Shown: piece by piece, positions 7,942-33,606 of the stretch
Position numbering within the stretch: position 1 is the stretch's first letter
Layout of the letters: every line of letters starts with the position of its first letter
Source: a bacterium
GTDB taxonomy: Bacteria > Patescibacteriota > Minisyncoccia > Phycocordibacterales > UBA9973
Length of the DNA: 64,000 nt
Assembly (NCBI GenBank): GCA_021824345.1
Contig: JAKAKW010000004.1
Coordinates: forward strand, 11,019 to 75,018
Direction: 5' to 3'
Position numbers and translations under genes: made by a program
Notes under the pieces: generated by a model
The model's database searches: none
Told to the model about the DNA's origin: nothing
Seen by the model: only the letters and a program-made list of their open reading frames with translations

Positions 7942-9393
7942 TTAGATCATAGGCTCGGCTTCCTGGACTGGTTTGACGGCCTCTCCGGGCTTTTTGCCTT
8001 CAATTATGGCCTTTTCCTCGGCGCTGCGTATAATGGTGGCCTCTTCCTCGGCAATAAGCTTGGCAGCATCTTCTTTGGATATGGTGTATTTCCGCCTGGA
8101 AGCTTCCACTATCTCATTCCTATACGACGGATGGGTGGGAGGCAGGACTTTCAGGGATTCCGCGGAGAAAGGGTCGTATGACTCGCCGTCTATGGTCATT
8201 TTTATGAAAAATTCGGTAATGGCCAGGTTGATCATGTCTTTGATGTCGAAGACGGGCGCAAACTCAGGCTTCATTTTTACCGCGTCCTCGCCGCCGATGC
8301 GGAAGGAAATAATGCTCCCGCAATTACCGAGTACGGCGTGATGCACCCGCTCAATGATCTGCCCCACGAATTGGTGGGCGATGGTAAGGCACAGGCCGTA
8401 TTTGCGCGCTTCCGACAGAATGTTTTCAAAAGTCTGGGTCACCACGTTCTGGAACTCGTCCACGTACAGATAGAAATCGGTGCGCTTGTCTTCCGGTATG
8501 CTCGCGCGTTCCATTCCAGCTTGCTTGATTTTGGTCAGGAAAATGGACCCAAGGAATGAAGAGTTTTCTTCGCCCAGCCGGCCTTTGGAAAGATTGATCA
8601 GAATTATTTTCTTTTCTTCCATCAGCTTATGAATATCAATTTTGTTCTGCTTCTGTCCGAAAATATTGCGCAGAAGCGGATCGGAAAGAAATTGTCCGAG
8701 CTTGTTCACCAGCGGGATGATGGCGTCGGTATCGAATTTTTCCGACCAGTCGGCGAATTCAATGGCAAAGAATCTTTTTACCATATCGTCGGTGATATAT
8801 TCCACCACTTTCTGGCGGTAGTTTCGGTCCGTGAGCATGGAAATCATTCCGCGCATGGTGGCATGCGGATAGTCCAGAAGCGCGAGGCAGGTAAAGCGGA
8901 AGACGTGCTCCAAGCGCGGGGTCCAACTGGCTCCGAACTGCTTTTGAAAGACTTCTATCAGTCCCTGGGTCAATTGGAACTTGAACATCGGATCCACGTT
9001 TTGCAGAGGATTAAAGGAAGCAGGGTGTTCAAGATCGGTCGGATCAATAATGCATACGTCTTCCATGCGCTCTTTGGGGATATAGTCCAGCATGGCTTCT
9101 ATGACGTCTCCGTGCGGGTCAATAAGGCACAGGCCGTGGCCATAAGTCACGTCCTGGCGCAAAAGGAGCTCCATGAGCTTGGTCTTCCCAACTCCGGATT
9201 TGCCGATGATATAAAGATGCCGCCTGCGGTCTACTCGCTTGATGCCGAAAATAAATTTCTTCTCTTCAAGCGCGGCCACGTAATTGGTACGCCCTATAAA
9301 GGAAACTTCAGCCGGATCAATCCTGCCAAATACCGGGAGCTCCGGCGGCGGGGGGGCGTATTTGATTATCTGTACTCGATTGCCTCTGGGCAT
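7942..9393 (-). CDS. FtsK/HerA-superfamily P-loop ATPase (DUF87/HerA-like or T4SS coupling-protein-like), copy 1
   Basis: Walker A 'IIGKSGVGKTKL' followed by 'LIDPHGD'; Walker B 'FYLYVDEFQN'; 'LTIAHQ' sensor-like motif. Paralogous over its whole length to 20010-22241. Confidence 0.6.
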   Translation of the reverse strand: MPRGNRVQIIKYAPPPPELPVFGRIDPAEVSFIGRTNYVAALEEKKFIFGIKRVDRRRHLYIIGKSGVGKTKLMELLLRQDVTYGHGLCLIDPHGDVIEAMLDYIPKERMEDVCIIDPTDLEHPASFNPLQNVDPMFKFQLTQGLIEVFQKQFGASWTPRLEHVFRFTCLALLDYPHATMRGMISMLTDRNYRQKVVEYITDDMVKRFFAIEFADWSEKFDTDAIIPLVNKLGQFLSDPLLRNIFGQKQNKIDIHKLMEEKKIILINLSKGRLGEENSSFLGSIFLTKIKQAGMERASIPEDKRTDFYLYVDEFQNVVTQTFENILSEARKYGLCLTIAHQFVGQIIERVHHAVLGNCGSIISFRIGGEDAVKMKPEFAPVFDIKDMINLAITEFFIKMTIDGESYDPFSAESLKVLPPTHPSYRNEIVEASRRKYTISKEDAAKLIAEEEATIIRSAEEKAIIEGKKPGEAVKPVQEAEPMI

Positions 9394-9401
9394 ATAATCT
9401 T

Positions 9402-9410
9402 ATTTTACCA
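9402..9410 (-). promoter_or_regulatory. Extended -10 element TGGTAAAAT, 8 nt upstream of the ATPase copy-1 ATG (candidate leaderless promoter)
   Basis: The minus strand reads ...TGGTAAAATaagattatATG. The same TGGTAAAGT box sits at the same spacing before two family-gene starts (14737-14745 and 33613-33621). Confidence 0.4.
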
Positions 9411-9430
9411 TTATTCCCATTATTTTTATA

Positions 9431-9453
9431 GGGCGGAGGGTTACCCTCAGCCC
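9431..9453. repeat. Palindromic hairpin repeat family 2 (GGGCGGAGGGTTACCCTCAGCCC) between array A and ATPase copy 1
   Basis: Inverted repeat GGGCGGAGGG/CCCTC(A)GCCC. Related copies lie at 14765, 33641, 44638 and 54594/54625. Confidence 0.7.
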
Positions 9454-9492
9454 TTACCTTTCTACCTCAAAGTCTGCTTAGTTTTGCCGAAA

Positions 9493-11214
9493 TTAATACA
9501 CTTCCTTGTTGTAGCACTCTTCGCAGTATACGGTTTCGGGGCGGTCGGGGGCGAATGCGGTATCAAATTCGTTCAAACATTTGCCAGCGTGGCTGTGGCC
9601 GGCTTTCTGGCACATGCAAGAACGGTGCCAGAGCCTGCGCGGATTGCGGAGCAAAAACCGCTCCTGCCGCCTGCAAGAAAAGCATTTGTCCGGTATCGGA
9701 ATGTTCAGAATCCTGTATAAGGAAAGTTCAAGCGGGGTAATCTTAAAGGCTGTGGTGCATAGAGGATAATTTTTTGCTTCTTCCGGCGAATTCTGTGAAG
9801 AACACCCTATTACTTCATTGATAATGCCATCATTTGCTTCTGTGATAGTTTTCGGCATATTCTCACCGGCAAGAGTGATTTTATAATCTCTCTCAGGCCT
9901 CTCATACCATGAATATCCGGCCTTCACGGCCTCTTCTTTTGTCAGCGGGAAATAGTCCTGAGCCATAGATTCATTATAGGCGAAAGGCGAAACCTCAGCC
10001 GGGAAATATTCTCCCCACTCCCCTGTTTTTCGCATATGCTCTATTATTTTCTCTTTCAGTTCCGCATATTCTTCTTTTGAGTACTGCTTGTTCAATATGC
10101 AGTACTTCCCCTTCTCTAATCCGAAACAGCCGAAGCAGTCGCTGGTGCTGAAACACATATCGCAATAGCAGGAATCCACGATAGTGTTGAAGCAGCTGCG
10201 GATAAACATAGATCTGTGAGGAGAATCTACTCCCTGTATCTCATAGCATCTCTCACCTACTATAATTTCCGTACAATCCATGCAATCTTGAGTATCAAGC
10301 CACGCATCTTGCATATAGGCAGTGTCTTTGTTTTCTTTGCAATTAAATACTTCTTTCGCTCGCTGGCAATTCTCAATATAATCCCCGGTGGAATCTTCCA
10401 CTTGCGATCCGTGGTAATATTTCACTGGAATTTTTAATCGCAGTTTGTTCCTTTTTTCCTTTGCTTCGCGCACAGAATTCCTATCAAATGAAAAATCGCT
10501 TAATTTTTTTTCATACTCTTCCTTATTAAGCTTTTCATTAAACCAGCAATATTGCTTCTTTCTCAAACCCACGCAGCCGAAACAGTCCAAACACCCCTTG
10601 CAATCGTCACAGAACCAGAGTGATACGGAATCTGCGCAATCTCGGCACCAAGCGCACTTGGAGCAATGGTCAAGATTAATGCATTCGTAACAGAATTCGC
10701 TCTTGAAAACCATATAGCAATCACCGCAGAAATGGCTGTTTTGATTCCAGCTTCCATACATGCATTTCTCACACATTCCGCTGGTCACCAGCATGTAACA
10801 CTCCTTGTTGTCCTGAGATTGATTAGTGTATTCGCTATTTACGCTTCTGGAATTTACCATCGCCAGATGGGGCGCTTCTCTGCGCAACTCTTCATATTGT
10901 TCAAAAAATGGCCGATTAAAATCAAAATTCCGCCAGTACTCTTTGGCCTCAAAAGCGTCCGATTTCCAATATTCCTGCTCGTATACCGGAAAGGGCGCAT
11001 CCTCCCGATAAATGGAAATTATGGATTTTCCGGTAGCATCGCATTTCCGCTTGTAAAAATTGTACTCGTTTCGGTCCAAAAGCCGGCGAAGATATCGGCA
11101 ATCCGGACACAGGGTCGGCGGAGGCACGCCGATCTTTCCATAAAACCCGAAATCGTCCGGCTTTATCGCGAAATCTTTTTGACAATTTTTGCACTGTCTT
11201 TTTTCTTCCTTCAT
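9493..11214 (-). CDS. Cysteine-rich multi-zinc-ribbon family protein, array A copy 1 (unknown function)
   Basis: 573 aa. N-terminal module 'CKNCQKDFAIKPDDFGFYGKIGVPPPTLCPDCR'; core 'CDDCKGCLDCFGCVGLRKKQYCWFNEKLNKEEY' and '...CFGCFGLEKGKYCILNKQYSKEEY'; C-terminal 'PIPDKCFSCR...WHRSCMCQKAGHSHAGKC...YCEECYNKEVY'. Confidence 0.85.
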   Translation of the reverse strand: MKEEKRQCKNCQKDFAIKPDDFGFYGKIGVPPPTLCPDCRYLRRLLDRNEYNFYKRKCDATGKSIISIYREDAPFPVYEQEYWKSDAFEAKEYWRNFDFNRPFFEQYEELRREAPHLAMVNSRSVNSEYTNQSQDNKECYMLVTSGMCEKCMYGSWNQNSHFCGDCYMVFKSEFCYECINLDHCSKCAWCRDCADSVSLWFCDDCKGCLDCFGCVGLRKKQYCWFNEKLNKEEYEKKLSDFSFDRNSVREAKEKRNKLRLKIPVKYYHGSQVEDSTGDYIENCQRAKEVFNCKENKDTAYMQDAWLDTQDCMDCTEIIVGERCYEIQGVDSPHRSMFIRSCFNTIVDSCYCDMCFSTSDCFGCFGLEKGKYCILNKQYSKEEYAELKEKIIEHMRKTGEWGEYFPAEVSPFAYNESMAQDYFPLTKEEAVKAGYSWYERPERDYKITLAGENMPKTITEANDGIINEVIGCSSQNSPEEAKNYPLCTTAFKITPLELSLYRILNIPIPDKCFSCRRQERFLLRNPRRLWHRSCMCQKAGHSHAGKCLNEFDTAFAPDRPETVYCEECYNKEVY

Positions 11215-11219: not shown

Positions 11220-12980
11220 TCAGTATACCTCTTTTCTATAGCACGGCTCGCAGTAAATTTTCAGGTTCTTGGACGGGTCATATGTGGTCAATATTTCCTT
11301 TCCGCATTTGGAACATATGCGCTTCCATATTTTATATGGACTCCGCTTATGAAAACGCTTCATCAGCCGCGCTCGGGGACTTTTCGCAGGTAAAGGAATG
11401 GAATTTCGGCGGTAAAAATCAAGTTCGCTTTTTATTATCCTGAAAGGCCGGCCGGACTCCTGGCAGATTATAGCCATATTAAGAATATCATCCGTTGCGT
11501 CTTTTATATCATCCGTAAGATCCTTGCCAGAAATAACCTTCATGCCTTTTACATCCATGCTCACTTCGTAATCCCGAAGACGAGCGCCCAGTTTCCCTGC
11601 TTTTTCTTTGGAAACCGGCATCATAGCATACCCGTAAGTGTCGTGGTAATAGAAGAAAGAATCCTCCAGCCGCAAGAACTCCCCGTAATTTCCATCTGAA
11701 AGCATCTTTACTTTTATCTTATCCACCAGCTTCCAATATTCTTCGGGAGAGTATTGCTTATTCAGCACGCAGAAATTCTTCTTCTTTAAGCCGGAACACC
11801 CGAAGCAGTATTTACAATCCGAACATTCAAAGCAATATTCCACCTGCCGGCAATTACTGACGAAATATGAGGCAATGGCAAGATTGGAAAAAAGCCCTTC
11901 GGCAACATTGTAGCAAAGCTCGCCGGGGCCGAATATGGTCACGTCCATGCAATCGTGCGTGCCAATTATGTCGGAACTGTGCCGCACATTCTCATTCCGA
12001 TAGAAAGTTATCAAATATTTCATGCCGGAGGCATTGTATACATCCACGCAGTTTTTACTGTCTGATATGTGACTGCCGAGCGATCCGGGAGAGTTGCGTA
12101 TAATAAGATCCCGATGGATAGAGTCTTTTTCTATCATTTCCGAAAATTTACGCTTGTATTCTTCTGCCACCGATCTCCTGCCAAGATCTATTTCAGAAAT
12201 TTTTTGCATATACTCTTCTTTGGAAAACTGTTTATTGAGAAAACAATATTGTTTGCTCCGCAAGTTTGCGCACATAAAGCAGTCGTGACAATCATGGCAG
12301 TCAAACAAAAATTTTGAATTTATACAGCTTTTGCAATTTTGAATATATTGAGACTCATAGATGCGGTCGGAATCTAATATATCGTAGCAATGCTCTAAAT
12401 GGTCCACTCGCAGGACGTCTACGCAATCCTTAGCATATGCCGCCCATAGTCCATAGGACACGTCTTCGGAAACGCCTATCACGGAAGAAACATAGCAGTT
12501 TTTGACGTCCATGCTCTCCACGCTGTAATCACTGTTTATGATGTTCTTGTTGTATCTGGATATAGCCATATGGGGTACGTCGTGGAGCAATTTGTTCAGC
12601 TGTTCATAGAAAGATTCATTTGCATCATATACGCGACCGAATCCTGTTGCGTCCCAAGCATTCACATCCCACCAGTATTTGTTGTCATAAATTTTATATT
12701 GGCTTTTCGCGTCCAACTGGGAAATCAGGCTTTCCCCAGAATGAGCGGAGCATTCTTTTTTATAGAACTGGAAAATATTGGCAAGCATGGCCATGCGCCT
12801 GCGCGCCCGGCATTCCGGACATTCATTGAGAGGAGGAACTCTCAATTTTTTTAAATACGATATGTCCTCAGCGCTGATATCAAAAGAATTCCCGCAAGTT
12901 TCACAAGTGCGTTTTTGCGGAGAAAGATTTTCATATATCTTTTCCAGGGCTTCATCAAATTTCGGAGTTTTTGTCTGCAT
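11220..12980 (-). CDS. Cysteine-rich multi-zinc-ribbon family protein, array A copy 2
   Basis: The listed ORF extends to 13055, but the family-conserved start is MQTKTPKF at 12980, 1 nt after the stop of copy 3. Motifs 'CETCGNSFDISAEDISYLKKLRVPPLNECPECR', 'CHDCHDCFMCANLRSKQYCFLNKQFSKEEY' and C-terminal 'CSKCGKE...YCEPCYRKEVY'. TGA stop. Confidence 0.8.
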   Translation of the reverse strand: MQTKTPKFDEALEKIYENLSPQKRTCETCGNSFDISAEDISYLKKLRVPPLNECPECRARRRMAMLANIFQFYKKECSAHSGESLISQLDAKSQYKIYDNKYWWDVNAWDATGFGRVYDANESFYEQLNKLLHDVPHMAISRYNKNIINSDYSVESMDVKNCYVSSVIGVSEDVSYGLWAAYAKDCVDVLRVDHLEHCYDILDSDRIYESQYIQNCKSCINSKFLFDCHDCHDCFMCANLRSKQYCFLNKQFSKEEYMQKISEIDLGRRSVAEEYKRKFSEMIEKDSIHRDLIIRNSPGSLGSHISDSKNCVDVYNASGMKYLITFYRNENVRHSSDIIGTHDCMDVTIFGPGELCYNVAEGLFSNLAIASYFVSNCRQVEYCFECSDCKYCFGCSGLKKKNFCVLNKQYSPEEYWKLVDKIKVKMLSDGNYGEFLRLEDSFFYYHDTYGYAMMPVSKEKAGKLGARLRDYEVSMDVKGMKVISGKDLTDDIKDATDDILNMAIICQESGRPFRIIKSELDFYRRNSIPLPAKSPRARLMKRFHKRSPYKIWKRICSKCGKEILTTYDPSKNLKIYCEPCYRKEVY

Positions 12981-12981: not shown

Positions 12982-14730
12982 TTAATACACCTCCTTGTTG
13001 TAACAATCCTCGCAGTATACGGTTTCGGGGCGGTCGGGGGCGAATGCGGTATCAAATTCGTTCAAACATTTGCCAGCGTGGCTGTGGACGGCTTTCTGGC
13101 ACATGCAAGAACGGTGCCAGAGCTTCATGGGATTGCGTTTGGCAAGGCGCGCTTCGTGCCGGCAGAAGAAGCATAGATGCGGGAGCGGAACACCGAGTTT
13201 TTTATACAGCTTCAGTTCCCCGTCGGTTATCTTGAATGCCCCGCGGCAACGCCCGCCGGAATTATTCCGATTCGCGCATCCTATTACTTCGGAAAGAATC
13301 GAATCCCGCACATCGCCCAATCTGTCCGGCAGATCTTTCGCCTCAATGGTGAGGGAATACTCGTTCTGCTTTTTGTCCCGCCACCTGTACCCCCTCGAGA
13401 GAGCCTCCTCCTTGGTCAAAGGAAAATAATCCTGGGCCTGGGTTTCGTTATAACAGAATGGAGAAAGTTCCGCCGGGAAGAATTCGCCGTACTTGTATGT
13501 CAAACCATTCCTGTCCACATAAGGCATATTCATCATATGCTCTTTGATTTTTGGAACCAACGCTTCATACTCCTCCTTTGAATATTCCTTGTTTAAAATG
13601 CAATGCTTCTTATTCCTTATTCCAATACAGCCGAATAAATCGGAACAGCCGTGGCAATTGAACGAATATTCCACGTTATTTGAGCTGTACACCACGCTGG
13701 TGAATAAGTTGCGGTAATTTCCAATGCCGGTATCAAATGCTTCATACGCCAGCTCTGCGTCCCCCAGACCCGGTCCAATATCGTAGCCGTCTTTTACCAC
13801 ATGGGCCACCCAATGCGCGAACTTGCAGTCTTCTATGTTGCCATTTCCGTCAAAAATAATATGGCAATTTTTTACCCCGTCCAAATTATCTCCGGTGGAA
13901 TTTATACTCCTAATCTGGTTTGCAAATCTATTGACGGCTCCGAGTACAAGCTTGTCAAATTTTTCTTTTAATTTTGAAATTTCGGCATAGCTTGTGAGAT
14001 CGATTTCAGACAAGCGCTTAGTGTATTCTTCCTTGCTTAATGGTTCATTCCACATGCAATATGATTTGTTGCGCTGGTTTGTACAGCCCAAACAATTGGT
14101 ACAGCCATGGCAATCGTAAAGAAAATATGAATCCACGCAGGCCTTGCATTTCATGGAATACATAAGGCGATAGCAGTCTTCGCAAAACATATCCTCGTAA
14201 CAGAGTTCTGATTTGTGAGTCACATAAGTGTCTGAGCAGTCTTTGGTCTCGGAGATGCGATTGGAATAGAAAGTACGCTCAATTTTCCATGACCCGGAAG
14301 ACATGTAGCTTTCTCTTGAATCCTCCGCCACATTGCAGTAATCGCTGTTTACGGCATGGATGTTAGAAAGAGCCTGTTGGGGAAAATCCCTATATAACTC
14401 GCTCCATTGCTGAAAAAATGGTTTTGAAAAATCATAGTCCCGCCCGTAAGAAAGTTGGTCCCAATTGTCGCTCCACCAATAACTTGAATCATATGTTTTC
14501 AGCTTTTCATCCGGCGGATACATGCTGATTATGTCCTCGTCGTGCCCCGGCGCGTCACATTTGCGCCTGAAAAGAGACATTTCGTTGCGCCAGCTTATGC
14601 GTCGAACAGTACGGCAATCGGGGCAAAAAGTCGGCGGGGGCACGCCGATTTTCTTGTAGAAATTAAAATCCTCCGGCTCAATAGCGAAGCTCTGCTTGCA
14701 ATTCTGGCATTGCCGGGTTTCGGATTGCAT
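12982..14730 (-). CDS. Cysteine-rich multi-zinc-ribbon family protein, array A copy 3
   Basis: 582 aa with 'MQSETRQCQNCKQSFAIEPEDFNFYKKIGVPPPTFCPDCR'. Its C-terminus is nucleotide-identical over about 115 bp to copy 1. Confidence 0.85.
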   Translation of the reverse strand: MQSETRQCQNCKQSFAIEPEDFNFYKKIGVPPPTFCPDCRTVRRISWRNEMSLFRRKCDAPGHDEDIISMYPPDEKLKTYDSSYWWSDNWDQLSYGRDYDFSKPFFQQWSELYRDFPQQALSNIHAVNSDYCNVAEDSRESYMSSGSWKIERTFYSNRISETKDCSDTYVTHKSELCYEDMFCEDCYRLMYSMKCKACVDSYFLYDCHGCTNCLGCTNQRNKSYCMWNEPLSKEEYTKRLSEIDLTSYAEISKLKEKFDKLVLGAVNRFANQIRSINSTGDNLDGVKNCHIIFDGNGNIEDCKFAHWVAHVVKDGYDIGPGLGDAELAYEAFDTGIGNYRNLFTSVVYSSNNVEYSFNCHGCSDLFGCIGIRNKKHCILNKEYSKEEYEALVPKIKEHMMNMPYVDRNGLTYKYGEFFPAELSPFCYNETQAQDYFPLTKEEALSRGYRWRDKKQNEYSLTIEAKDLPDRLGDVRDSILSEVIGCANRNNSGGRCRGAFKITDGELKLYKKLGVPLPHLCFFCRHEARLAKRNPMKLWHRSCMCQKAVHSHAGKCLNEFDTAFAPDRPETVYCEDCYNKEVY

Positions 14731-14745: not shown

Positions 14746-14764
14746 CGTTTGCGTAAAAATTCTA

Positions 14765-14787
14765 GGGCGGAGGGTATCCCTCCGCCC
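14765..14787. repeat. Palindromic hairpin repeat family 2 (GGGCGGAGGGTATCCCTCCGCCC) in the only sizeable intergenic gap of array A; on the minus strand it is followed by a T5 run (terminator-like)
   Basis: Perfect 10-bp stem. On the transcribed (minus) strand it is followed by TAGAATTTTTACG. Confidence 0.7.
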
Positions 14788-14834
14788 TCCCTCGGCCCTT
14801 CTCCGCCTTGGCTTCCAAATTAAAACCATTGCCG

Positions 14835-24465: not shown

Positions 24466-24527
24466 ACTATTCCGACATTATATACTAATGCTATAATTTT
24501 GACAAGTTTTTCGTGGTCGCAAAAAGC

Positions 24528-24555: not shown

Positions 24556-24561
24556 TCTTAT

Positions 24562-25080
24562 ATGTCAAGAAAACCGAGCTATTCCCAAAAAATCCTTAAA
24601 ATATTGGCTCAAAAACCGGCTATTTCTGTTAAATCTATAAAGGAAGATAAGAGCTCAAAGGAAAACTACGCATTGGCAAGATCGGTCAAGAGCCTCATAG
24701 ATTCCGGTTGTATTGAGGTGGTTTCCTCAGACAATCAAAAGTACTTAAAAATCACAAAAAAGGGTCGGAACAAGCTGAATTGTCTGAAGCTGGAAGGCCA
24801 GGAGGCGCTTGTGTCCTTTGCATGGGATGGATTGTGGAGATTTATAATTTTGGACTTGCCGGAAGAGCGGAAAAGCGAACGAGAAGCCTTGCGCTATCTC
24901 TTGAAAAAGGCGAATTTCGTATGCGTTAAAAACGCTGTGTGGGCCTCCCCCCACCCTTACGAGCACCTGTTCGGAAGCATTAAAAAGGACTTAGGGCTTG
25001 GCGCCGAGATGATGATAATGGTAACAGACTCGGTGGACGAAGACACCAAGAAACTTTTGTTTGAGTCCTTCGGAAAGTAA
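24562..25080 (+). CDS. PaaX-family-like transcriptional regulator (N-terminal winged helix plus PaaX_C-like domain)
   Basis: N-terminal wHTH-like 'ILKILAQKPAISVKSI...LIDSGCIE'. C-terminal 'WDGLWRFIILDLPEERKSEREALRYLLKKANFVCVKNAVWASPHP' resembles the PaaX C-terminal signature (W.G.W..V.F..PE..R..R..LR..L...GF..L...VW..P). Confidence 0.5.
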   Translation: MSRKPSYSQKILKILAQKPAISVKSIKEDKSSKENYALARSVKSLIDSGCIEVVSSDNQKYLKITKKGRNKLNCLKLEGQEALVSFAWDGLWRFIILDLPEERKSEREALRYLLKKANFVCVKNAVWASPHPYEHLFGSIKKDLGLGAEMMIMVTDSVDEDTKKLLFESFGK

Positions 25081-26793
25081 TCAATATACCTCCTTTTGGT
25101 AGCATGATTCGCAGTATACTATCTCCGGCCTCTCCGGCGCGTAGCTTGTCTCAAATTCGTTCGAACACTTTCCTTCGTGGCCGTGGTTTCCCTTGTCACA
25201 CATGCAGGAGCGGTGCCAGAGCCTTAGCGGCGTTTTCATTTTTATCCGTTCCATATGCCGGCAGAGCGGGCAAAGGCGTGGCAATGGAATTTTATTTTTC
25301 TTATAAAACTTAATTTCGGAATCTATCAGTCGGAATGCCGTCGCACACTGATCGTTGCACTTGCCTCTATGCGCACATTCAATAACTTCTTCGGTAAATG
25401 AATCCGGAACGTCTGATATATTGTCCGGGATTTCTTCCGTTCGGATCGAAATTTCATACTTTTTCTCTTCCGATTCGCGCCATTCGTAGCCTTTTTCCAG
25501 AATTTCCTCTTTTGATTTCGGAAAATAGTCCTGAGCCAAGGTTTCGTTATAGCAGAAAGGATAATCGCTTGTCGGGAAAAATTCCCCGTACTCCCCTACC
25601 TTTTTCATTGATTCAATAATTTTTTCGGTCAGTTTTGCGTATTCCTCCTTCGTATATTGCCTATTTAAAATGCAATATGATTTGTTCCGCAGGCCGATGC
25701 ACCCGAAAATATTGTTGCAATCGTAGCAATTATAGGAATATAGGACGTCAAAGCCTCCCCAAATGAAGGCAGAAAAGAATATCCTCTGCCCGGAAATGCT
25801 TACCGCTTCATAAAACACTTCAGCTTTATCCCAGGCAATAAAGGCGTCTTGGCCGTCTTTGGAATTATCATGAACCCGAAAAGAATACTTGCAGTCTTCA
25901 ACGTTGCCTCTTAAGTTAAAGCATTGCTTGCAATTTTTTGCTTCCATTATGTCGTCCCCGGTCACATTTACCGATTTATTGATTATCGCGTATTTCCTGG
26001 GAGTTTTAAGCTTTAGTTTCTCAAACTTTTCTTTTGCTTCCAAAAGCTTGGAATAACTGCCATTTCTATATTCCTCGATCTTTTCCGCATATTCCTCCTT
26101 ACTATATTGCGTATTGAAAATGCAATTATTTTTTCCCCGCAAGCCCACGCATCCGAAGCAATTTGTGCAATTCCGGCAATCATACATGAGCATAGAGTCT
26201 ACACACGCCTCACAGCTTTGTCCGAAAAAAAAGTGGTTTGATTTTTGGGAATCGACAAGTTCATAGCAAAATTCGCATTCGGGAGACTGATGCAAATCAA
26301 GGCAATTCTTTATTCTGAGAAGCCCGCCGAAAATGTAGGCATTGTCCTCGCCCGTGACGCAGCCGGCGCAAAAATAGCAGTTCTTCAGATTTACCGTGTA
26401 ATTTGAATATTTGCTGTTCACATTGTTCTTCTGCACAAGATTCGGGTGCGGAACGTCTGAAAACAGCTTTTTAAATTGCACAAAGAATTTTTTAGAAAAA
26501 TCATATTCTCTGCCGTGCTCCAAGGGATCCCAAGCGTCGCTCTTCCAATATTCGTTGTCGTACACTTTTAAGGGAGAATCGGCGGGATACATGGAAAGTA
26601 TTGATTGGCCTGTAGCATCGCATTTCCTGTGGTACCAATTGCGTTCGTTTCTCCATAAAAGCCTGCGAATGGTCCGGCATTCCGGGCACCATGTCGGCGG
26701 AGGAACTTTGATTTTCTCATAAAAAGAGAAATCTTCCGGCTCAATGGTAAAGTCCTTTTGGCAATTCTGACATTGTTTGGTTTCGGGTTGCAT
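25081..26793 (-). CDS. Cysteine-rich multi-zinc-ribbon family protein, array B copy 1
   Basis: 570 aa: 'MQPETKQCQNCQKDFTIEPEDFSFYEKIKVPPPTWCPECR', 'CRNCTNCFGCVGLRGKNNCIFNTQYSKEEY', 'CYDCNNIFGCIGLRNKSYCILNRQYTKEEY', C-terminal 'WHRSCMCDKGNHGHEGKCSNEFETSYAPERPEIVYCESCYQKEVY'. Its stop abuts the stop of the convergent PaaX-like gene. Confidence 0.85.
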   Translation of the reverse strand: MQPETKQCQNCQKDFTIEPEDFSFYEKIKVPPPTWCPECRTIRRLLWRNERNWYHRKCDATGQSILSMYPADSPLKVYDNEYWKSDAWDPLEHGREYDFSKKFFVQFKKLFSDVPHPNLVQKNNVNSKYSNYTVNLKNCYFCAGCVTGEDNAYIFGGLLRIKNCLDLHQSPECEFCYELVDSQKSNHFFFGQSCEACVDSMLMYDCRNCTNCFGCVGLRGKNNCIFNTQYSKEEYAEKIEEYRNGSYSKLLEAKEKFEKLKLKTPRKYAIINKSVNVTGDDIMEAKNCKQCFNLRGNVEDCKYSFRVHDNSKDGQDAFIAWDKAEVFYEAVSISGQRIFFSAFIWGGFDVLYSYNCYDCNNIFGCIGLRNKSYCILNRQYTKEEYAKLTEKIIESMKKVGEYGEFFPTSDYPFCYNETLAQDYFPKSKEEILEKGYEWRESEEKKYEISIRTEEIPDNISDVPDSFTEEVIECAHRGKCNDQCATAFRLIDSEIKFYKKNKIPLPRLCPLCRHMERIKMKTPLRLWHRSCMCDKGNHGHEGKCSNEFETSYAPERPEIVYCESCYQKEVY

Positions 26794-26797: not shown

Positions 26798-28510
26798 CTA
26801 ATATACTTCTTTATTGTAATGTTCTGTGCAAACTACTTTTTCAGGGCCACCTTCGGAGACGGGAGGAAAAGTGGTATCCACTTCCTTGTCCCCAAAAAAG
26901 CACATGCGCTTATGCAACTTCATCGGATTGCGGATCCTGAGCCTGGCATTATGCCTCTCGTCTGGGTGGACAGATGGTAAAGGAAGATTCATCCTTTTAT
27001 AAAAAGAAAACTCTTGCTCTGTTATTCTGTATGGCCTGCCGGTAATTTCGCAAGCTATAGTTTTTTCCAGAATTGAATTGTCCGCTTCTAAAATGGTGTC
27101 AGGTAAATCCGATCCATTAATATCCGTTGTATATATTCCGGATTCATATTCCCGCCACAAGTATCCTTTTTCCTCCGCAGTCTCCTTTTTTAATGGAAAA
27201 TAGTCCTGTGCAACCGTTTCATTATAGGCATACGGCGATATTTCCGGCGGAAAATACTCTCCAAATCTATAAATTTTTCCCTTTTTATCTTCAAATGGCA
27301 CGTCCATCATATGCTGAATGACCTTCGGCAAAAGATTTTCATATTCTTCTTTTGTATATTGCTTGTTCAGTATGCAATATTGTTTTCCGTTTAGTTCCGC
27401 ACAGCCGAAGCAGTCCTTGCAATTATTCATCATGTAGCTGTAATGCACATTATTGGAATACCAAATTATGGAACCGAGCAGGCAATAATTGTTATGCACC
27501 CCTATACTTATCCCTTCATAAGTCAATTCCGATCCCCCTCCGGAACCCGGCCCGACGTCGTATGAATCTCGCAATCCTTTCGTGCCTCAATTTGCATATT
27601 TTACATTCTCAAAATCCCCTTCGGCGTCAAACACTTTGTAACAATTTTTTGAATTAAATACGTGGTCCCCCACTACATTCACGTCGTTTAATAATTTTAG
27701 GTCGCGGTGTATAGCATTTTCCCATACTTCCTTGAATTCTGCTTTTGCTGACGCCAGTCCTTTTATTGAATCCAGCCTTAACTTCTTCTTTTTTTCTTCG
27801 TATTCTTCTTTTGAATACTGTATATTTTTTATGCAGTAGTTTTTGTTCCTCAAATTGGAACATAAAATGCAATTGGAGCAATTTCTGCAATCATATAGAA
27901 AGTATGAATCAAGACAATTTTCGCTTTCCAGGGAAAAGAAAAGCCTACTTGAGTCCCGGCAATAAACATTTTCATATCCAAACTCCGTGTTGTAGCAAAC
28001 GTGCGAATCAACGGTGTATTTGCACCCTGATACCCTATTACAATACATGGAGTCTTCGCATGTCCAAGCCGCCGTCACCAAATAGCAGTTTTTCATTTCC
28101 ACTGTAATATTGCAAAACCTTGCATTGGATGATTTGGAATCGAAAAGAGTAATGTGTGGAACTCGTTCCATAAGCTCCTTGAACTGCAGAAAAAATGGTT
28201 TGGAAAAATCATATTCTCTTCCATACTCAAGCGGATTCCATTTATCGCTCCACCACATGTCCTTGTCGTAGACAGTCATCTTTGCGTCGGGGTGATATAT
28301 AGAAATCAAAGTTTCTTCCTCCTTTCCCGGAGCGCCGTTCGGGCAGCGAAAAAGAGAGTGCTCATTGCGCCACATTAATCTTCTAAGAAGCCGGCACTCC
28401 GGGCAAAACGTCGGCGCGGGAACCTTGATTTTCTCATAAAAAGAGAAATCATCCGGCTCGACGATGAAGCTCTTCTGGCAATTCTGGCATTTTCGGGTTT
28501 CGGGTTGCAT
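26798..28510 (-). pseudogene. Cysteine-rich family member, array B copy 2, interrupted by an in-frame TGA (the complement of 27587-27589)
   Basis: The two listed ORFs (27587-28546 and 26798-27574) are collinear with the family. The minus strand reads ...ENVKYAN-TGA-GTKGLRDSYDVGPG in one frame with no frameshift. The stop aligns with W in copy A3 ('KFAHWVAHVV'). TGA is a genuine stop in this genome (used by copy A2 at 11220). The C-terminal module has lost its conserved Cys pair ('PLPSVHPDERH'). Confidence 0.6.
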
Positions 28511-28512: not shown

Positions 28513-30207
28513 TCAATACACCTCTTTTTGATAGCAACTTTCGCAATATATTATCTCCGGCCTCTCCGGCGCGTAGCTTGTTTCAAATTCGTTCGAACAC
28601 TTTCCTTCGTGGCCGTGGTTTCCCTTGTCACACATGCACTGGCGAAACCACGACTGTCTTGGAAGACGAAGAGAAAATCTTCTTCGATATCTGCAATCAG
28701 GACATTTCCTGGGCAAAGGAATGTTTTCTCTCTTGTAGAAGGCAAGTTCGTCAGGGATAATGTTGTAGTTTTTAGAACATGAGACGCATTTCAAAGCGGC
28801 AGAAAATATATCTTCATTAACATCTTTAATATTGTCCGCCAAGTCCTCCGGCTGTATCGTTTCTTTCCCGAATATTCCGGGTATTTCATCCTCCCAAAGC
28901 CATCCCCTATCCAGCACTTCTTCTTTGGATAAGGGCATATAGTAATTTCCCTGGGTTTCGTTGTAACACACGGGGGCGATCGGGGGCGGAAAGAATTCTC
29001 CGTACTCCCCCGTTTTTTTCATATGTTCAATAATTTGATTTCGCAGTTTAATATACTCCTCCTTGCTGTATTTTCTGTTGAATATCATGTATTCTCCTTT
29101 TTTAATTGATATGCATCCGAATAGATTCTGGCTGTTCTGGCACGAATCGCAATATTGGATATGAGAATTGTCGTAACAAAGATGGGAAAAGAAAGCATCA
29201 TATACTCTTGTGCATCCGTGATCTTCATATGCCAGTTCAGTATTAAAGCCCACGTGATAGCAATCCATCACGCTTTTCATATCAACTGCTGAAAATATAT
29301 TCTTGGCGTCATACATTTTATTTACATCAAAGCAGTGTATCGTATTTTTGCTGTTAAATATGAAATTACCGGAAGAATTTACGCTTCTTTCGCTTACCAT
29401 ATATTTATGTATGGAGTTTTCCTGATATAATTTTGAAAATTCTTCCATAAACTTTTCCCTGGCCGCATGCGATCCGAGATTGCATTCCTCTATTTTCTTT
29501 GCGTACTCCTCCTTGCTGTATTGTTTATTTTTAAAACAGAAACTCTTATTCCTTAGGTTGGAACATAGGAAGCAATCATTGCAATTTCGACAATCGTATG
29601 AATAAAAACAGTTTACGCAATTCTCTAAAAGTACGGAAAATTGGCATCCGAAACCATTATTGGAATCTATGCATTCATAAAGCCTTTCTCCGTGTTTAAT
29701 TATATAAGAACAATCCATAGAACCTCTTGATTCCATCACATAAGTGGAATATGACACGTCTTCAGTGTCAAAACAGCAAAAAGACATATATGTATTCTTG
29801 TTGTCTCCGGAGTGATTGGTGTATTCCGATTTTACGCTGTTCTTGCTGAGCACTGCCATGCGGGGAACTTCCAGCATAAGTTCCTTGAATTGTTCAAAAA
29901 ACGGCCTGTTAAAATCAAAATCTCGCCCGTATTTTGCCGGGTCCCATCCGTCTCCCCACCAGCAAGACAGGCAATATACCTTGTATGGCTTATTCGGTGA
30001 ATATATTGTAACCGTGCTCTTTCCGCACAAGTCGCAGTTTCTTCTGTATAAAGTTCTTTCATTCCTCCATGCGTATCGTCTCTGCTGTCGGCATTCCACG
30101 CACAACGTCGGCGGAGGAACCTTGATTTTCTCATAAAAAGAGAAATCATCCGGCTCGACGATGAAGCTCTTCTGGCAATTCTGGCATTTTCGGGTTTCGG
30201 GTTGCAT
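28513..30207 (-). CDS. Cysteine-rich multi-zinc-ribbon family protein, array B copy 3
   Basis: 564 aa. Its 5' end (about 90 bp) is identical to copy B2 and its 3' end (about 88 bp) to copy B1. Second ribbon 'CDLCGKSTVTIYSPNKPYKVYCLSCWWGDGWD'. Confidence 0.85.
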   Translation of the reverse strand: MQPETRKCQNCQKSFIVEPDDFSFYEKIKVPPPTLCVECRQQRRYAWRNERTLYRRNCDLCGKSTVTIYSPNKPYKVYCLSCWWGDGWDPAKYGRDFDFNRPFFEQFKELMLEVPRMAVLSKNSVKSEYTNHSGDNKNTYMSFCCFDTEDVSYSTYVMESRGSMDCSYIIKHGERLYECIDSNNGFGCQFSVLLENCVNCFYSYDCRNCNDCFLCSNLRNKSFCFKNKQYSKEEYAKKIEECNLGSHAAREKFMEEFSKLYQENSIHKYMVSERSVNSSGNFIFNSKNTIHCFDVNKMYDAKNIFSAVDMKSVMDCYHVGFNTELAYEDHGCTRVYDAFFSHLCYDNSHIQYCDSCQNSQNLFGCISIKKGEYMIFNRKYSKEEYIKLRNQIIEHMKKTGEYGEFFPPPIAPVCYNETQGNYYMPLSKEEVLDRGWLWEDEIPGIFGKETIQPEDLADNIKDVNEDIFSAALKCVSCSKNYNIIPDELAFYKRENIPLPRKCPDCRYRRRFSLRLPRQSWFRQCMCDKGNHGHEGKCSNEFETSYAPERPEIIYCESCYQKEVY

Positions 30208-30211: not shown

Positions 30212-31948
30212 CTAATATACCTCTTTATTATAGCAGTCTTCGCAATATACTATATCCGGCAAATTGGGACTGTAACTGGTTTCAAATTCGTTTGGGCATT
30301 TTCCTTTGTGATTATGGCCTTTCTCTTTGCACATGCAGGAACGGTGGTAGAACTTGCTGGAATGCCTGTGGGCAATTCTTCTCTCGTGCCGGCAATCCAC
30401 ACACAGGCGCGGCAGTGGCACATTCGTCTGCTTAAGAAAAGACAGTTCCGGCGCTATTATCCTGTAGGCCCTGCCGCAACCAGCGCAGGAAATGACCTCC
30501 CTCAATATGCTCCCCGTGACATCGCTGACAGAATCAGGAAGATCTGACGCGGAAATTGTTATATCATATTTGTTCGGATCAGAATCGTCAAAACGCATGC
30601 CGAGCTGTTCAGCCTCTTCCTTGCCTTTTGGAAAATGTTCCGAAGCGATTGTGTGGTTATAGGCAAAAGGAGAAAACTCCGGCGGAAAAAATTCTCCGTA
30701 TTTATAGACTCTTCCTTTCTTGTCAGTATACGGCATATCGTTCATATGCCTCTTTATTTTCTCCTTCAGGGCAAAATATTCCTCTTTTGAGTACTGTTTG
30801 TTCAAAATGCAATATTTCTGCTTCATTATTCCGATACAGCCGAAAAGATCGGACGCCATGTGTCCGCAAAACATGCAATATTCAAATCCGCTGCCCCCGT
30901 CCCAGCACTCCATGCAGAACCTCATATCGGAGCTTCGCCACCCGCAGACCGAGCATTCATACAAAAGTTCCGTCTTGTTTCCTATGATCGTCGCGTCCAT
31001 GCAATCCTTACTGGAAGGAACTTGGGAATATTGCACATATTTTAAATTTTCACACTCGCGAATGAGGTAGCTCTCTTTTACGTTTTTTGAATTGGATATA
31101 TACTCCCCCGTTACATTCTGGTTGTGAGTGCCTTCCATGAATTTATTCGGAAATTTAAGCCAGAACTCTTCGGCTTTTTTCCGCGCCAAAGAAAAATTGC
31201 TCCATTTTTTAAGTTCCATTTCTTCCAGTTTTTCCTCATATTCTTCCTTTGTATATTGCTCGTTCCAAATGCAATAGCTTTTAGAACGCAAGTTGGCACA
31301 GCCAAAGCAGTGTTGGCAATCCCGACAATTTTTCAAAAACCACGACGAAAGGCAATTTTCACACTGCGCGGAAAAATGGGTTTCATAGCAGTTGGTAAGC
31401 CAAAAGGAATCATAACACCGCTCGGATTTTTGAATGTGAGAAACATCAAAGCAGTTCCGGCAATAATCCACTCCATTGCCATACGAACAATCCTCCGTGA
31501 AGTTTGAATTAAACAACAAGTAACAATTCCGCAAGTCTTCGGCATTGGCTGAGTAATCGCTGTTTACCATTTTTGAAGCGGTTACGGCCCGGCTGTATTT
31601 TGGAACCTTTTTTGACAATTCAAATATTTGCTCAAAAAAAGTCCTGGCGGGATCAAAATCCATTCCATATGATAATGGATCCCATTTCTCTTGATTCCAC
31701 CAGTCGCTGTCATTGTAAATCGTATATCCTGATTCCGGAGAATAAAGGGAAAAAATAGTTTTGCCGGTAAGGCCTTCTTTTTGCCTAAAAAGCTTTCTTT
31801 CATTCCTGAAAACCATCCGCCTTTCCTTCCGGCATTCTGGGCACCATGTGGGAGCCGGCACTTTGAATCTTTCATATTGGGAGAAGTCTTCCGGCTCTAT
31901 CGTAAAGTCATTCTGGCAATTCTGACATTTTCGGGTTTCGGATTGCAT
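30212..31948 (-). CDS. Cysteine-rich multi-zinc-ribbon family protein, array B copy 4
   Basis: The listed ORF extends to 32050; the conserved start MQSETRKCQNC lies at 31948. Motifs 'CRDCQHCFGCANLRSKSYCIWNEQYTKEEY', 'CILNKQYSKEEY' and C-terminal 'CVDCRHERRIAHRHSSKFYHRSCMCKEKGHNHKGKCPNEFETSYSPNLPDIVYCEDCYNKEVY'. Confidence 0.8.
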   Translation of the reverse strand: MQSETRKCQNCQNDFTIEPEDFSQYERFKVPAPTWCPECRKERRMVFRNERKLFRQKEGLTGKTIFSLYSPESGYTIYNDSDWWNQEKWDPLSYGMDFDPARTFFEQIFELSKKVPKYSRAVTASKMVNSDYSANAEDLRNCYLLFNSNFTEDCSYGNGVDYCRNCFDVSHIQKSERCYDSFWLTNCYETHFSAQCENCLSSWFLKNCRDCQHCFGCANLRSKSYCIWNEQYTKEEYEEKLEEMELKKWSNFSLARKKAEEFWLKFPNKFMEGTHNQNVTGEYISNSKNVKESYLIRECENLKYVQYSQVPSSKDCMDATIIGNKTELLYECSVCGWRSSDMRFCMECWDGGSGFEYCMFCGHMASDLFGCIGIMKQKYCILNKQYSKEEYFALKEKIKRHMNDMPYTDKKGRVYKYGEFFPPEFSPFAYNHTIASEHFPKGKEEAEQLGMRFDDSDPNKYDITISASDLPDSVSDVTGSILREVISCAGCGRAYRIIAPELSFLKQTNVPLPRLCVDCRHERRIAHRHSSKFYHRSCMCKEKGHNHKGKCPNEFETSYSPNLPDIVYCEDCYNKEVY

Positions 31949-31950
31949 AA

Positions 31951-33606
31951 CTAATTTATATTCTGCTTGTAACACTCCTCGCAGGCAATGTTTTTGTATC
32001 CCCATTCGGGCGGGTAATATGCCATGATATCTTTCCGGCAGTAATGGCATTTATACGGAAAAGGGTGCAGAACGGTCAGGTATTTGAGCGCATTCCTGGT
32101 CCGCAGATCAAAATGCAGGCGCGGCAGAGGGATATTATTCTCTCTATGAAAAGAAAGTTCATTTTGGGCGATATTGAAACGCCAGCCGGTCTCCGGGCAG
32201 ACGAGCGGTTGGGTAATGATTGAATCTGGCGCGTCCTTGATATTGTCCGGCAATTCGCCGGCGGGCATGCCTTCCGCTTTTTCTGTGTTCGGATCTTCCC
32301 AATACCCGCCCAAAGCCAAGACATCTTCTTTTTTTGCTTCCGGAAAATACAATATGCTTGTGGAAAGGTTGAAAGGACCGGCGCTCATTGAATAGGGCAA
32401 GAATTGCCCGTATTCTCCCCGCTTTTTCATGTCAGACACTATTTCCATCCGGAGTTTTTCATATTCTTCTTTCTCATACTGTTTGTTCAGAATGCAATAT
32501 TTTTTCTTCTTCAGTCCTACGCAACCAAAACAATATTCGCATTCTATGCACAAGTCCAGATACTCGGAATACCTGGAGGATGACCAGTTGCTGTATTTCT
32601 GCGCATAAGCGTTAACGCAGCTGGCGCAATTGCCCAAGAGCTCGGAATACCAGCAACCATTCGCGTCAATGTCGGACTTGTGCCGAAGCCCGCGATTGCA
32701 GTTCCAAGAATCCTCAGAGTCGCTTATCGTGTTGCAATTATGGCAATTCTTCGTATCCATCAAGTAGTTTCCGTCGGAATCATATACCCTATAATTGAAA
32801 TTGGGCCGGTGCACCGCTTTGTCCTTGGCAATATTTTCAAATTTTTCCTTCAGCTTCTGTGCGGCGGAATACGAACCGAGATCGTATGATTCGAGTTTGG
32901 CCTCGTACTCTTCCTTGGAATATTGCACATTCTCTATGCAGTGCGTTTTTCCCCGAAGGTTCCAGCACATGAAGCAACTTTGGCAATTACGGCAATCGTA
33001 CAAAAAAGACGAATCAATGCAGTCTCGGCAGTGCCGAGAATAGAAAAGGCGGAAAGAATTGTAGCAGTCGCTCGAATCGTAGCATTTCTCCGAATCAAAC
33101 AGCACATGCACGTCTATGGAATTCCTGACCCGCAGGTTTCGATATGAATAATAAAGTTCTTCGCAATTTTCCATGGAGCGGGCCAGGTAACAGTTCTTTG
33201 AATTCCACACGTCGTCGCACCAGTCGCAATTCGTATTCTTGATCCCGTTCTGGTGCGGATGCGGCACTTTTTCCTGAAGTTCCTTAAGCTGATCAAAAAA
33301 AGGGCGGACGGGATCGTAATCCTGCCCGAATTCCATCGGATCCCATTTATCGCTGTACCATTCGGAAGTCTTGTAGATCGGGTACCGGCTATTTTCCGGC
33401 ATGACCGTGATCAGGCTTTCGCCGGACAAATCCGATTTCCCTTTTCGAAACCGGCCGAAGAGCCAGAACGAGAAATGTTGCTTCAGCCTGCAGTCGGAGC
33501 AAATGACCGGAATCTCAGTGCCGGTTTTTTCGTATAAAGCAAGTTCTCCAGGCTCTATGCTGAACTTTGACTTACAGTGCTCGCACGTGCGAGCTTCACT
33601 TTGCAT
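31951..33606 (-). CDS. Cysteine-rich multi-zinc-ribbon family protein, array B copy 5 (first gene of array B, divergent member)
   Basis: 551 aa: 'MQSEARTCEHCKSKFSIEPGELALYEKTGTEIPVICSDCR', 'CRNCQSCFMCWNLRGKTHCIENVQYSKEEY', 'CFGCVGLKKKKYCILNKQYEKEEY', C-terminal 'YKCHYCRKDIMAYYPPEWGYKNIACEECYKQNIN'. Confidence 0.8.
   Translation of the reverse strand: MQSEARTCEHCKSKFSIEPGELALYEKTGTEIPVICSDCRLKQHFSFWLFGRFRKGKSDLSGESLITVMPENSRYPIYKTSEWYSDKWDPMEFGQDYDPVRPFFDQLKELQEKVPHPHQNGIKNTNCDWCDDVWNSKNCYLARSMENCEELYYSYRNLRVRNSIDVHVLFDSEKCYDSSDCYNSFRLFYSRHCRDCIDSSFLYDCRNCQSCFMCWNLRGKTHCIENVQYSKEEYEAKLESYDLGSYSAAQKLKEKFENIAKDKAVHRPNFNYRVYDSDGNYLMDTKNCHNCNTISDSEDSWNCNRGLRHKSDIDANGCWYSELLGNCASCVNAYAQKYSNWSSSRYSEYLDLCIECEYCFGCVGLKKKKYCILNKQYEKEEYEKLRMEIVSDMKKRGEYGQFLPYSMSAGPFNLSTSILYFPEAKKEDVLALGGYWEDPNTEKAEGMPAGELPDNIKDAPDSIITQPLVCPETGWRFNIAQNELSFHRENNIPLPRLHFDLRTRNALKYLTVLHPFPYKCHYCRKDIMAYYPPEWGYKNIACEECYKQNIN

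Follow-up and report, generated by a model that had tools for sequence, protein, structure and literature searches.

A cysteine-rich protein family and paired soluble coupling-protein-like ATPases within a patescibacterial Hsp70 locus

Why the Hsp70 genes of a patescibacterium should be interleaved with eleven copies of a large cysteine-rich protein and a pair of motor ATPases is the question raised by the stretch of 64,000 nucleotides (nt) analysed here, hereafter the window (contig JAKAKW010000004.1 of assembly GCA_021824345.1, positions 11,019 to 75,018). The cysteine-rich, putative zinc-binding protein family was given the working name F, and the ATPases are referred to as ATPase1 (A1) and ATPase2 (A2). 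The locus runs in the order grpE, F genes b1–b5, a PaaX_M-like gene on the plus strand, dnaK, A2, F genes a1–a6, A1 and dnaJ (Table 1). As grpE closes the locus, both F arrays lie inside grpE–dnaK–dnaJ, which makes the Hsp70 context stronger than in the original prediction, a reading of the window from its sequence alone. In most cases, the conserved three-part module formed by A1, A2 and F lies nested within the chaperone operon.

Composition and conservation of the module

Eleven homologous F genes, all on the minus strand, were identified from a six-frame listing of open reading frames (ORFs) and their translations. Array A comprises six genes (a1 to a6, from 20005 down to 9493) and array B five (b1 to b5, from 33606 down to 25081), which together cover approximately 19 kb of the window. 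The intergenic gaps within the arrays measure 1–5 nt, except for those between a2 and a3 (12 nt) and between a3 and a4 (104 nt), and such short spacers suggest co-translation of the array genes. A2 ends 4 nt before the start of a1, and 99 nt separate a6 from A1. In this layout, including the two paralogous ATPases that flank array A and the 4-nt junction, the original prediction was borne out. An assembly artefact, named there as a possible objection, was ruled out on two grounds. The F paralogues share only 32–49% pairwise identity, as is found in old duplicates and not in collapsed or expanded repeats, and 12 independent contigs, among them one of GCA_027428315.1 and one of an ENA assembly, carry the identical array. 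Copy b4 contains an in-frame TGA at 27587–27589 (minus strand), where its paralogues carry tryptophan (TGG). From its sequence, b4 is probably a decaying pseudogene, although the TGA may instead reflect a sequencing error or be read through.

The two ATPases are 43% identical to each other and share the Walker A motif (in the forms GKSGVGKT and GKSGTGKS) as well as the DPHG and YLYVDEFQN segments. Pfam matches above the cut-off were obtained for each of them with TrwB_AAD_bind, DUF87, T4SS-DNA_transf and TraG-D_C, and FtsK_SpoIIIE (PF01580) was not among the Pfam matches of either protein at E ≤ 0.1. An AlphaFold2 model of A1 (predicted local distance difference test, pLDDT, 72.9) was compared with known structures using Foldseek, with TrwBΔN70 (1e9s) as the top match (E 1.4e-12, 422 columns; template-modelling scores TMq 0.56 and TMt 0.63, with a range of 0.56–0.66 for this pair). 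DotL from the Legionella coupling complex (6sz9) and Cagβ (8dol) came next, and HerA ranked lower. In the predicted structure, the overall fold of the soluble domain, including the all-alpha domain, is like that of TrwBΔN70. No transmembrane anchor was detected in either ATPase, both of which have polar N-termini and maximum 19-residue Kyte–Doolittle means of 1.04 (A1) and 1.13 (A2). On the basis of the Pfam matches, the modelled fold and the absence of the membrane anchor, A1 and A2 are best described as soluble equivalents of type IV coupling proteins (T4CPs) of the TrwB/VirD4 branch of the FtsK/HerA superfamily. Their original description as FtsK/HerA-type therefore holds for the superfamily, and the specific branch is that of the T4CPs.

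A2 differs from A1 in carrying a CxxC-x17-CxxC finger after its T4CP-like domain, which scored 50.1 bits against a cut-off of 27 and 52.4 bits against a cut-off of 36; the corresponding family, PF23477, is present in each of the 120 best A2 homologues. The C-terminal third of A2 (20010–20950) is a tail rich in lysine, glutamate and proline, in which the islands PLADLGIEF, DRAASAEDMNKLK and the terminal EVPEDILRKML are kept in 30 orthologues across a variable spacer. From their sequences, these islands look like short linear docking motifs. A third T4CP-like paralogue, of 790–914 amino acids (aa) and with an N-terminal extension of 370–500 aa, was observed in related genomes (1388–3760 in locus L047; 9532–12276 in L064), at 2–4 kb from the F arrays and with unrelated genes between. 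The L047 protein begins with a clear transmembrane helix, and this third paralogue may be a membrane-docked partner.

Linkage was surveyed in 80 metagenome loci seeded with ATPase1 and in 79 species genomes seeded with F. In the former, dnaJ lies directly downstream of A1 in 71 of the 80 loci. Of 61 informative loci, 47 have an F gene immediately upstream of A1 and 12 have A2 there. The A2–A1 interval contained no F gene in 12 loci, one in 15, two in 12, three in five and four in one, so that the six in the window exceed anything found in either survey, the maximum being five in one F-seeded genome locus. A1 and A2 are together located between dnaK and dnaJ in approximately 60 loci, and in nine loci besides the window grpE stands ahead of F genes or of the regulator and dnaK. 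In the F-seeded survey, an ATPase was found within 10 kb in 35 loci. F genes occupy three slots at the Hsp70 genes, namely the grpE–dnaK interval, the A2–A1 interval and the position after dnaJ. A second arrangement, gdh–A1–F(2–7)–A2 (gdh, glutamate dehydrogenase), was found in L017 (6828–14586) and L027 (621–13924), in which the order of the ATPases is inverted and neither dnaK nor dnaJ is present within 10 kb of the cassette. The linkage between F and the ATPases thus survives rearrangement and is more robust than that to Hsp70, and the pairing noted in the original prediction is conserved across related loci in two gene orders. The module is Paceibacteria-wide and chromosomally fixed, as judged from loci that are close relatives of the query.

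The median identity to the window across loci was 83.8% for DnaK, 85.1% for ATPase1, 68.4% for ATPase2 and 66.5% for DnaJ, and the value for ATPase1 exceeded that for DnaK in 20 of 25 paired loci (L005–L163). Homologues of coupling proteins are not usually conserved to the level of DnaK, and a core function is implied. The ATPases are core, strongly constrained genes, and the set of F genes around them is subject to turnover: depending on the genome, a slot contains 0 to 7 F genes, against an ATPase1 identity of approximately 85% throughout. The rapid paralogue turnover that had been predicted is thus true of gene number and not of the copies themselves, which are ancient and in part have orthologues of 60–72% identity. 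In all, orthologues at 55–72% identity were found elsewhere for a4, a6, b1, b3, b4 and b5, including those of b1 (55–72%) directly after grpE in L055, L058 and L127, and those of a6 (64–68%) just upstream of A1 in L048, L091 and L092. A scheme of fixed, position-specific F orthologues across genomes proved true only in part, as most outside copies are 38–55% identical to any window copy.

The F protein family

Scans of Pfam, NCBIfam and PADLOC with full-length proteins, an alignment of 68 members and the termini alone placed F in no named family, as had been anticipated, and returned only the small terminal zinc-finger domains zf_Tbcl and zf_Tbcl_2. The PDB, searched by sequence, yielded no more than one weak match, which was LIM-like (E=0.1). 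The C-terminal finger of a1 matches PF23477 zf_Tbcl_2 (equivalent to TIGR04272, CxxC-x17-CxxC) with 31–34 bits, above the Pfam cut-off, and F tails score up to 34 bits for PF23477/TIGR04272. Copies with a long tail fall below the zf_Tbcl_2 threshold because of a nine-residue insertion, which contributes cysteine and two histidines. Against PF13451 zf_Tbcl, the N-terminal ribbon scored 16.8–18.2 bits, below the gathering cut-off of 24 bits, and zf_Tbcl matches to this ribbon and to its C-terminal repeat were found in 18 of 68 members at E ≤ 1 (best 9e-4, sub-threshold).

Several details of the original description required revision. The ribbon spacing is CxxC-x24-CxxC instead of the proposed 20–22 intervening residues, and the proteins, once their starts are taken from the public gene calls, span 551–586 aa instead of 550–610 aa. 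The supposedly near-invariant long tail (WHRSCMC...) is present in six of the 11 copies; a short tail, CxxC-x17-CxxC, is found in four others, and in b4 the cysteines are lost. The statement that F lacks transmembrane helices and signal peptides did hold, as no such segment was found in the F proteins (maximum 19-residue Kyte–Doolittle mean 1.23). The proteins are predicted to be compact and cytoplasmic.

Profile–profile self-comparison with hhalign revealed homology of the ribbon (aa 3–58) to aa 478–540 (probability 98.9%) and of the core segment aa 139–245 to aa 291–395 (probability 99.9%), which shows that F is an internal duplication. From the N-terminus onwards, it is composed of zf_Tbcl, a zf_Tbcl_2-like finger, a helical segment, solenoid 1, a helix, solenoid 2, an alpha/beta segment in which the motif YGEFFP...YNET...FPL is conserved, and a C-terminal zf_Tbcl and zf_Tbcl_2. 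An intact second CxxC-x17-CxxC follows the N-terminal ribbon in a1, a2 and b3. The AlphaFold2 model of a3, computed from the 68-sequence alignment (pLDDT 87.3; predicted template-modelling score, pTM, 0.88), is a rigid single body, with a predicted fold of two cysteine-rich β-solenoid repeats whose ends are both capped by treble-clef zinc fingers. When this model was searched against the PDB with Foldseek, nothing significant was retrieved, so the whole fold has no match among solved structures there. Pairwise identity is 0.61–0.64 at the ends of F, compared with 0.36–0.49 for the solenoids and the linker.

Each copy contains 30–43 cysteines, and approximately 25 cysteine columns are conserved across the family, arranged as CxxC pairs. 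The CxxC-x17-CxxC domain binds zinc in small proteins of Methanosarcina (M. mazei), as determined by inductively coupled plasma mass spectrometry (PMC12704099). From the conserved pairs and the homologous small domain of M. mazei, we infer that F is likewise a putative zinc-binding protein; its CxxCxxCxxC run may bind an iron–sulfur centre.

A single F copy retrieved at least 7,264 clusters at 90% identity when 8,000 candidates were scored. In a HMMER scan of 1.84 billion representatives, 5,285 F clusters at 50% identity were found, of which 2,308 had E ≤ 1e-30, and the best 150 of them all display a single architecture of approximately 550–600 aa. All named organisms with F are Patescibacteria (Paceibacterota, Nomura-, Lipton-, Giovannoni-, Staskawicz- and Wolfebacteria, among others), and the names given to F members in the sources are all 'hypothetical' or obviously automatic labels. 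The family is therefore large, lineage-wide and multi-copy, yet wholly unannotated, and a literature search found no description of it or of a dnaK–T4CP–F linkage. An origin from phages or other mobile elements was ruled out, as no match was obtained in 50,697 phage and 72,556 plasmid records and only one partial match in the 2.9 million viral contigs of IMG/VR.

Possible roles of F and its ATPases

We tentatively favour a reading in which the F proteins would be physical partners of the A1/A2 motor and act as interchangeable specificity or adaptor subunits, which we regard as a possibility and not as the expected outcome. A1 would be a soluble hexameric motor of the TrwB/VirD4 type, to which the paralogue A2 would add its finger and tail. 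F would dock on A1/A2 through its conserved terminal zinc modules, given that the PF23477/TIGR04272 finger is common to A2 and the F tails, and its variable solenoid surfaces would be presented as the exchangeable part. The analogy is with Legionella DotL, on whose C-terminal tail zinc-binding and other adaptors assemble. Since the module is nested in grpE–dnaK–dnaJ in most lineages, it would be made together with Hsp70. Taken further, and with the same reserve, the locus might encode a cytoplasmic machine of Paceibacteria, and perhaps of Patescibacteria more widely, that is unseen in studied bacteria, in which a soluble hetero-oligomeric motor exapted from T4CPs would be combined with an expandable set of zinc-stapled β-solenoid F subunits with a novel fold and integrated into the Hsp70 operon. 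If true, this would be a chaperone-coupled translocase or remodelling system and, as a chaperone-linked motor with exchangeable subunits, a piece of new core cell biology in a major uncultured radiation. It would also account for the approximately two 'orphan' T4CPs per genome noted in 2025.

Several observations weigh against the adaptor reading. In the model, the zinc fingers of F form part of a single rigid body and may thus serve as structural caps rather than docking modules. Twelve of 45 A2–A1 pairs have no intervening F, and some 20-kb loci (L110, L120 and L140) have no F at all. F genes also occur by themselves in unrelated housekeeping surroundings, as in ftsW–F–murG, scpB–FFF and argS–F–ileS. 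Finally, the sampled loci are close relatives of the query (ATPase1 83–90% identical), and the breadth of the linkage is to be read within that range.

Alternatively, the F proteins might be cargo, that is, a repertoire of effectors recognised by A1/A2, kept secretion-competent by Hsp70 and exported through a type IV secretion system (T4SS) encoded elsewhere. We consider this unlikely. In its favour, the ATPases are genuine T4CP-fold proteins, the paralogue arrays stand beside secretion-type ATPases within a chaperone operon, and F has conserved termini around a variable core. The membrane-anchored third T4CP paralogue of L047 would fit as well, and so would the genomic background: T4SSs are widespread in Patescibacteria, lack a relaxase or known substrates and have their T4CPs encoded apart from virB4 (PMC12102498). 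The lack of known substrates gives the cargo reading its appeal. The same study counted 5,713 VirD4-like T4CPs in 2,918 Patescibacteria genomes (approximately two per genome), of which 148 are near virB4, and stated that exaptation of these proteins 'cannot be ruled out', with no mention of DnaK (PMC12102498, 2025). Were F exported, its members would be the first candidate substrates of a patescibacterial T4SS. However, the N-terminal membrane anchor by which T4CPs attach to the channel is missing from A1 and A2, and no T4SS or relaxase domain was found among the large ORFs with Pfam matches in the 64-kb window; the flanks of 159 related loci were screened for grpE, the regulator, dnaK, A2, A1, dnaJ and F only, and not for virB4. 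F is moreover predicted to be rigid (pTM 0.88), with many predicted zinc sites, and hence hard to unfold, and its C-terminus is modelled as a folded finger instead of a disordered signal. The domain that would have to serve as the signal is carried by ATPase2 too, and F orthologues (60–72% identity) evolve about as slowly as DnaJ and A2, unlike typical effectors.

A role in proteostasis, in which F would provide zinc- or redox-sensing holdases, co-chaperones or dedicated Hsp70 clients and the ATPases would be auxiliary remodelling motors, is in our judgement doubtful. It is suggested by the three F slots inside or adjoining grpE–dnaK–dnaJ, by the position of A1 and A2 between dnaK and dnaJ in some 60 loci, and by DnaJ itself having zinc centres. 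In addition, a CxC-x28-CxxC spacing in the C-terminal 48 residues of six of the 11 copies (a3, a4, a6, b2, b3 and b5) coincides with the Hsp33 redox switch (CxCx27-32CxxC). This resemblance is a lead only, as F has no HSP33 Pfam match, its Foldseek match to the Hsp33 redox-switch domain is non-significant (E=9, 25 columns), and the invariant cysteines of F are C540, C553, C571 and C574, not the CxC pair. Nor does F match DnaJ_CXXCXGXG in Pfam, and the CxxCxGxG motif is absent from the 11 window copies and present in one of 287 related F ORFs. Also adverse are the gdh–A1–F(n)–A2 cassette, which has no Hsp70 genes nearby, the occurrence of F in unrelated gene contexts, and the absence of a CIRCE element from the window. 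The genome furthermore encodes its own ClpB, the conventional disaggregase partner of Hsp70, so there is no disaggregase gap to fill, and the idea of the ATPases as a substitute for ClpB was ruled out on this account. Motors of the FtsK/HerA class are not known as chaperones.

Just as doubtful is a nucleic-acid reading, according to which A1/A2 would be a cytoplasmic DNA or RNA translocase derived from a conjugative coupling protein, for instance for processing imported DNA or the chromosome, and F its zinc-ribbon nucleic-acid-binding accessories. The relatives TrwB, HerA and FtsK are DNA pumps and the best structural matches, the Pfam label of the matches is 'coupling protein DNA-binding domain', and conservation is at housekeeping level. 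F would contribute four treble-clef or ribbon modules and conserved arginine-rich segments (CR..RR), and one source labels an F member 'Zn ribbon nucleic-acid-binding protein'. That annotation is automatic, however; no domain for nucleic-acid binding reached the threshold, the locus has no linked nuclease, relaxase or recombinase, and the need for up to 11 paralogues would go unexplained.

Still less probable, in our view, is the absence of any functional link, with the chaperone locus merely a permissive, highly expressed site for tandem expansion of F, and the ATPases and F independent of each other. The many other contexts of F and the 12 of 45 A2–A1 pairs devoid of it would agree with this, as would the streamlined genomes, in which nearly every neighbour is a housekeeping gene. 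Against it, the linkage is kept in two arrangements and contexts, A2 and F share a domain, and the spacing is as tight as 1–5 nt. Lastly, the defence or conflict system that the original prediction had offered as an option, with a HerA-like ATPase and diversifying sensor or effector paralogues, is so improbable as to be set aside: beyond a variable F copy number and weak PADLOC matches of the ATPases to mad8 and HerA models (E 1e-17 to 1e-8; partial for HerA), it has to contend with an NCBIfam HerA_antiphage score of 20.6 bits against a cut-off of 800, no family at E ≤ 0.01 for three F copies in PADLOC-DB 2.0, no nuclease, Sir2, DUF4297 or similar partner in the locus, the scarcity of F in mobile elements (none in phage or plasmid collections, one partial match in 2.9 million viral contigs), and core ATPases conserved like DnaK at a fixed housekeeping locus that is not a variable island.

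For the orphan patescibacterial T4CPs, the locus supplies a conserved dnaK–dnaJ context, a conserved partner family and a shared zinc-finger domain, all of which are experimental handles.

Neighbouring features and comparison with known systems

The PaaX_M (Cas2-like) gene keeps its position and orientation in 32 other loci, and its product is a candidate non-HrcA regulator of the Hsp70 locus. Regulation by HrcA/CIRCE was considered and dropped, as no CIRCE element (up to three mismatches) turned up in the window. A hairpin of sequence AGGGCGGAGGG-N3-CCCTCCGCCCT followed by a T-run occurs at four intergenic sites in a motif search of the window, compared with none expected by chance. The approximately 40 nt that follow the copies at 33640 and 14764 are alike (…TTTTTACGCAA.GTGGTAAAGTT…ATG). 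By its sequence, the hairpin resembles a terminator or attenuator cassette specific to this genome, by which the arrays would be subdivided. Neither the hairpin nor the operator-like repeat upstream of dnaK was seen in the loci of other species, and both were confined to this genome's own contigs.

The remaining genes of the window are housekeeping ones (dnaB, recR, cysS, rpoA, rpsD, rpsK, alaS, mnmA, typA, clpB, infB and transfer RNA genes). A stretch of low G+C content (0.36–0.42) from 58000 to 63000 contains four transfer RNA genes (58876–59297), a LAGLIDADG ORF (58153–58893) and four ORFs lacking Pfam matches (59367–62968), and may be a foreign or intron-related insertion. Three further minus-strand ORFs without a Pfam match (38759–40114, 40129–41277 and 46196–47623; 451, 382 and 475 aa, respectively) sit between the ribosomal and alaS genes and near yceG.

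Table 1. Coordinates of the features of the Hsp70 locus and of related elements, in window positions.
Feature	Position	Strand	Description
grpE	33684..34289	-	Pfam GrpE, E=1e-37; upstream boundary of the locus
Hairpin	33640..33664	-	Between grpE and b1; GC-rich palindrome and T-run (terminator-like scan)
F paralogue b1	31951..33606	-	551 aa; short CxxC-x17-CxxC tail; most divergent copy
F paralogue b2	30212..31948	-	578 aa; long tail
F paralogue b3	28513..30207	-	564 aa; long tail; second N-terminal ribbon with cysteines retained
F paralogue b4	26798..28510	-	In-frame TGA; C-terminal cysteines gone
F paralogue b5	25081..26793	-	570 aa; long tail
PaaX_M (Cas2-like) protein	24562..25080	+	Pfam PaaX_M, E=8e-17; divergent from dnaK
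dnaK/regulator intergenic region	24264..24561		Promoter-like sites matching 11/12 positions, both strands; two exact 12-nt repeats ATTATAGCATTA
dnaK (Hsp70)	22326..24263	-	HSP70 in Pfam on the called gene
ATPase2 (A2)	20010..22241	-	T4CP-like domain, aa 1 to ~440; zf_Tbcl_2 finger, aa 455-487; long low-complexity tail
F paralogue a1	18299..20005	-	568 aa; short tail above the Pfam zf_Tbcl_2 cut-off; second N-terminal ribbon intact
F paralogue a2	16590..18296	-	568 aa; short tail
F paralogue a3	14835..16577	-	580 aa; long tail; copy used for the structure model
Hairpin	14764..14788	-	In the 104-nt a3/a4 spacer
F paralogue a4	12982..14730	-	582 aa; long tail; orthologues of 62-69% in at least 10 loci
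F paralogue a5	11220..12980	-	586 aa; short tail; N-terminal extension
F paralogue a6	9493..11214	-	573 aa; long tail; 43 Cys
Hairpin	9430..9454	-	Between a6 and ATPase1
ATPase1 (A1)	7942..9393	-	Soluble T4CP-like ATPase (predicted), 483 aa; equivalent to TrwB without membrane anchor
dnaJ	6791..7903	-	DnaJ, DnaJ_C, DnaJ_CXXCXGXG; downstream boundary of the locus
Hairpin	44635-44659		Intergenic; fourth copy in the window
clpB	50969-53668	-	Complete ClpB with Clp_N, two AAA domains and D2-small; lies 17 kb away from the Hsp70 locus

Among known systems, parts of F resemble the zf_Tbcl domain, at sub-threshold scores, and the zf_Tbcl_2/TIGR04272 domain; the C-terminal finger of the short-tail F copies and the finger of ATPase2 exceed the curated zf_Tbcl_2 cut-offs. 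Known examples of these domains are small stand-alone proteins or appendages, whereas in F four such modules are predicted to cap a 570-aa β-solenoid. The spruce budworm antifreeze protein (1m8n), the hexapeptide-repeat acyltransferases and γ-carbonic anhydrase resemble the F model only in generic solenoid architecture, with low scores; F has no match to Hexapep in Pfam and lacks catalytic residues.

DotL is a T4CP whose C-terminal extension scaffolds small adaptors, one of them zinc-binding, in a complex with DotM, DotN, IcmS/W and LvgA (6sz9). It is among the top structural matches of the A1 model, and A2 has a long tail with conserved motifs. However, F shows no sequence or fold similarity to DotN, IcmSW or LvgA and is far larger (~570 aa), and the complex proposed here would be soluble. 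The likeness to Dot/Icm would be a functional analogy only.

The closest relationship is that of A1 and A2 to the T4CPs (TrwB/VirD4/TraD), with which they share Pfam families, Walker A and B motifs and, in the model, superposition on TrwBΔN70. They differ from them in having no N-terminal membrane anchor and no T4SS or relaxase genes nearby in the window, in occupying a fixed chromosomal site between dnaK and dnaJ with DnaK-like conservation, and in forming a paralogous pair, in which A2 is extended by a zinc finger and a disordered tail. The ATPases are thus of a known kind, and what is new is their soluble, paired and chaperone-embedded form, together with a new partner family.

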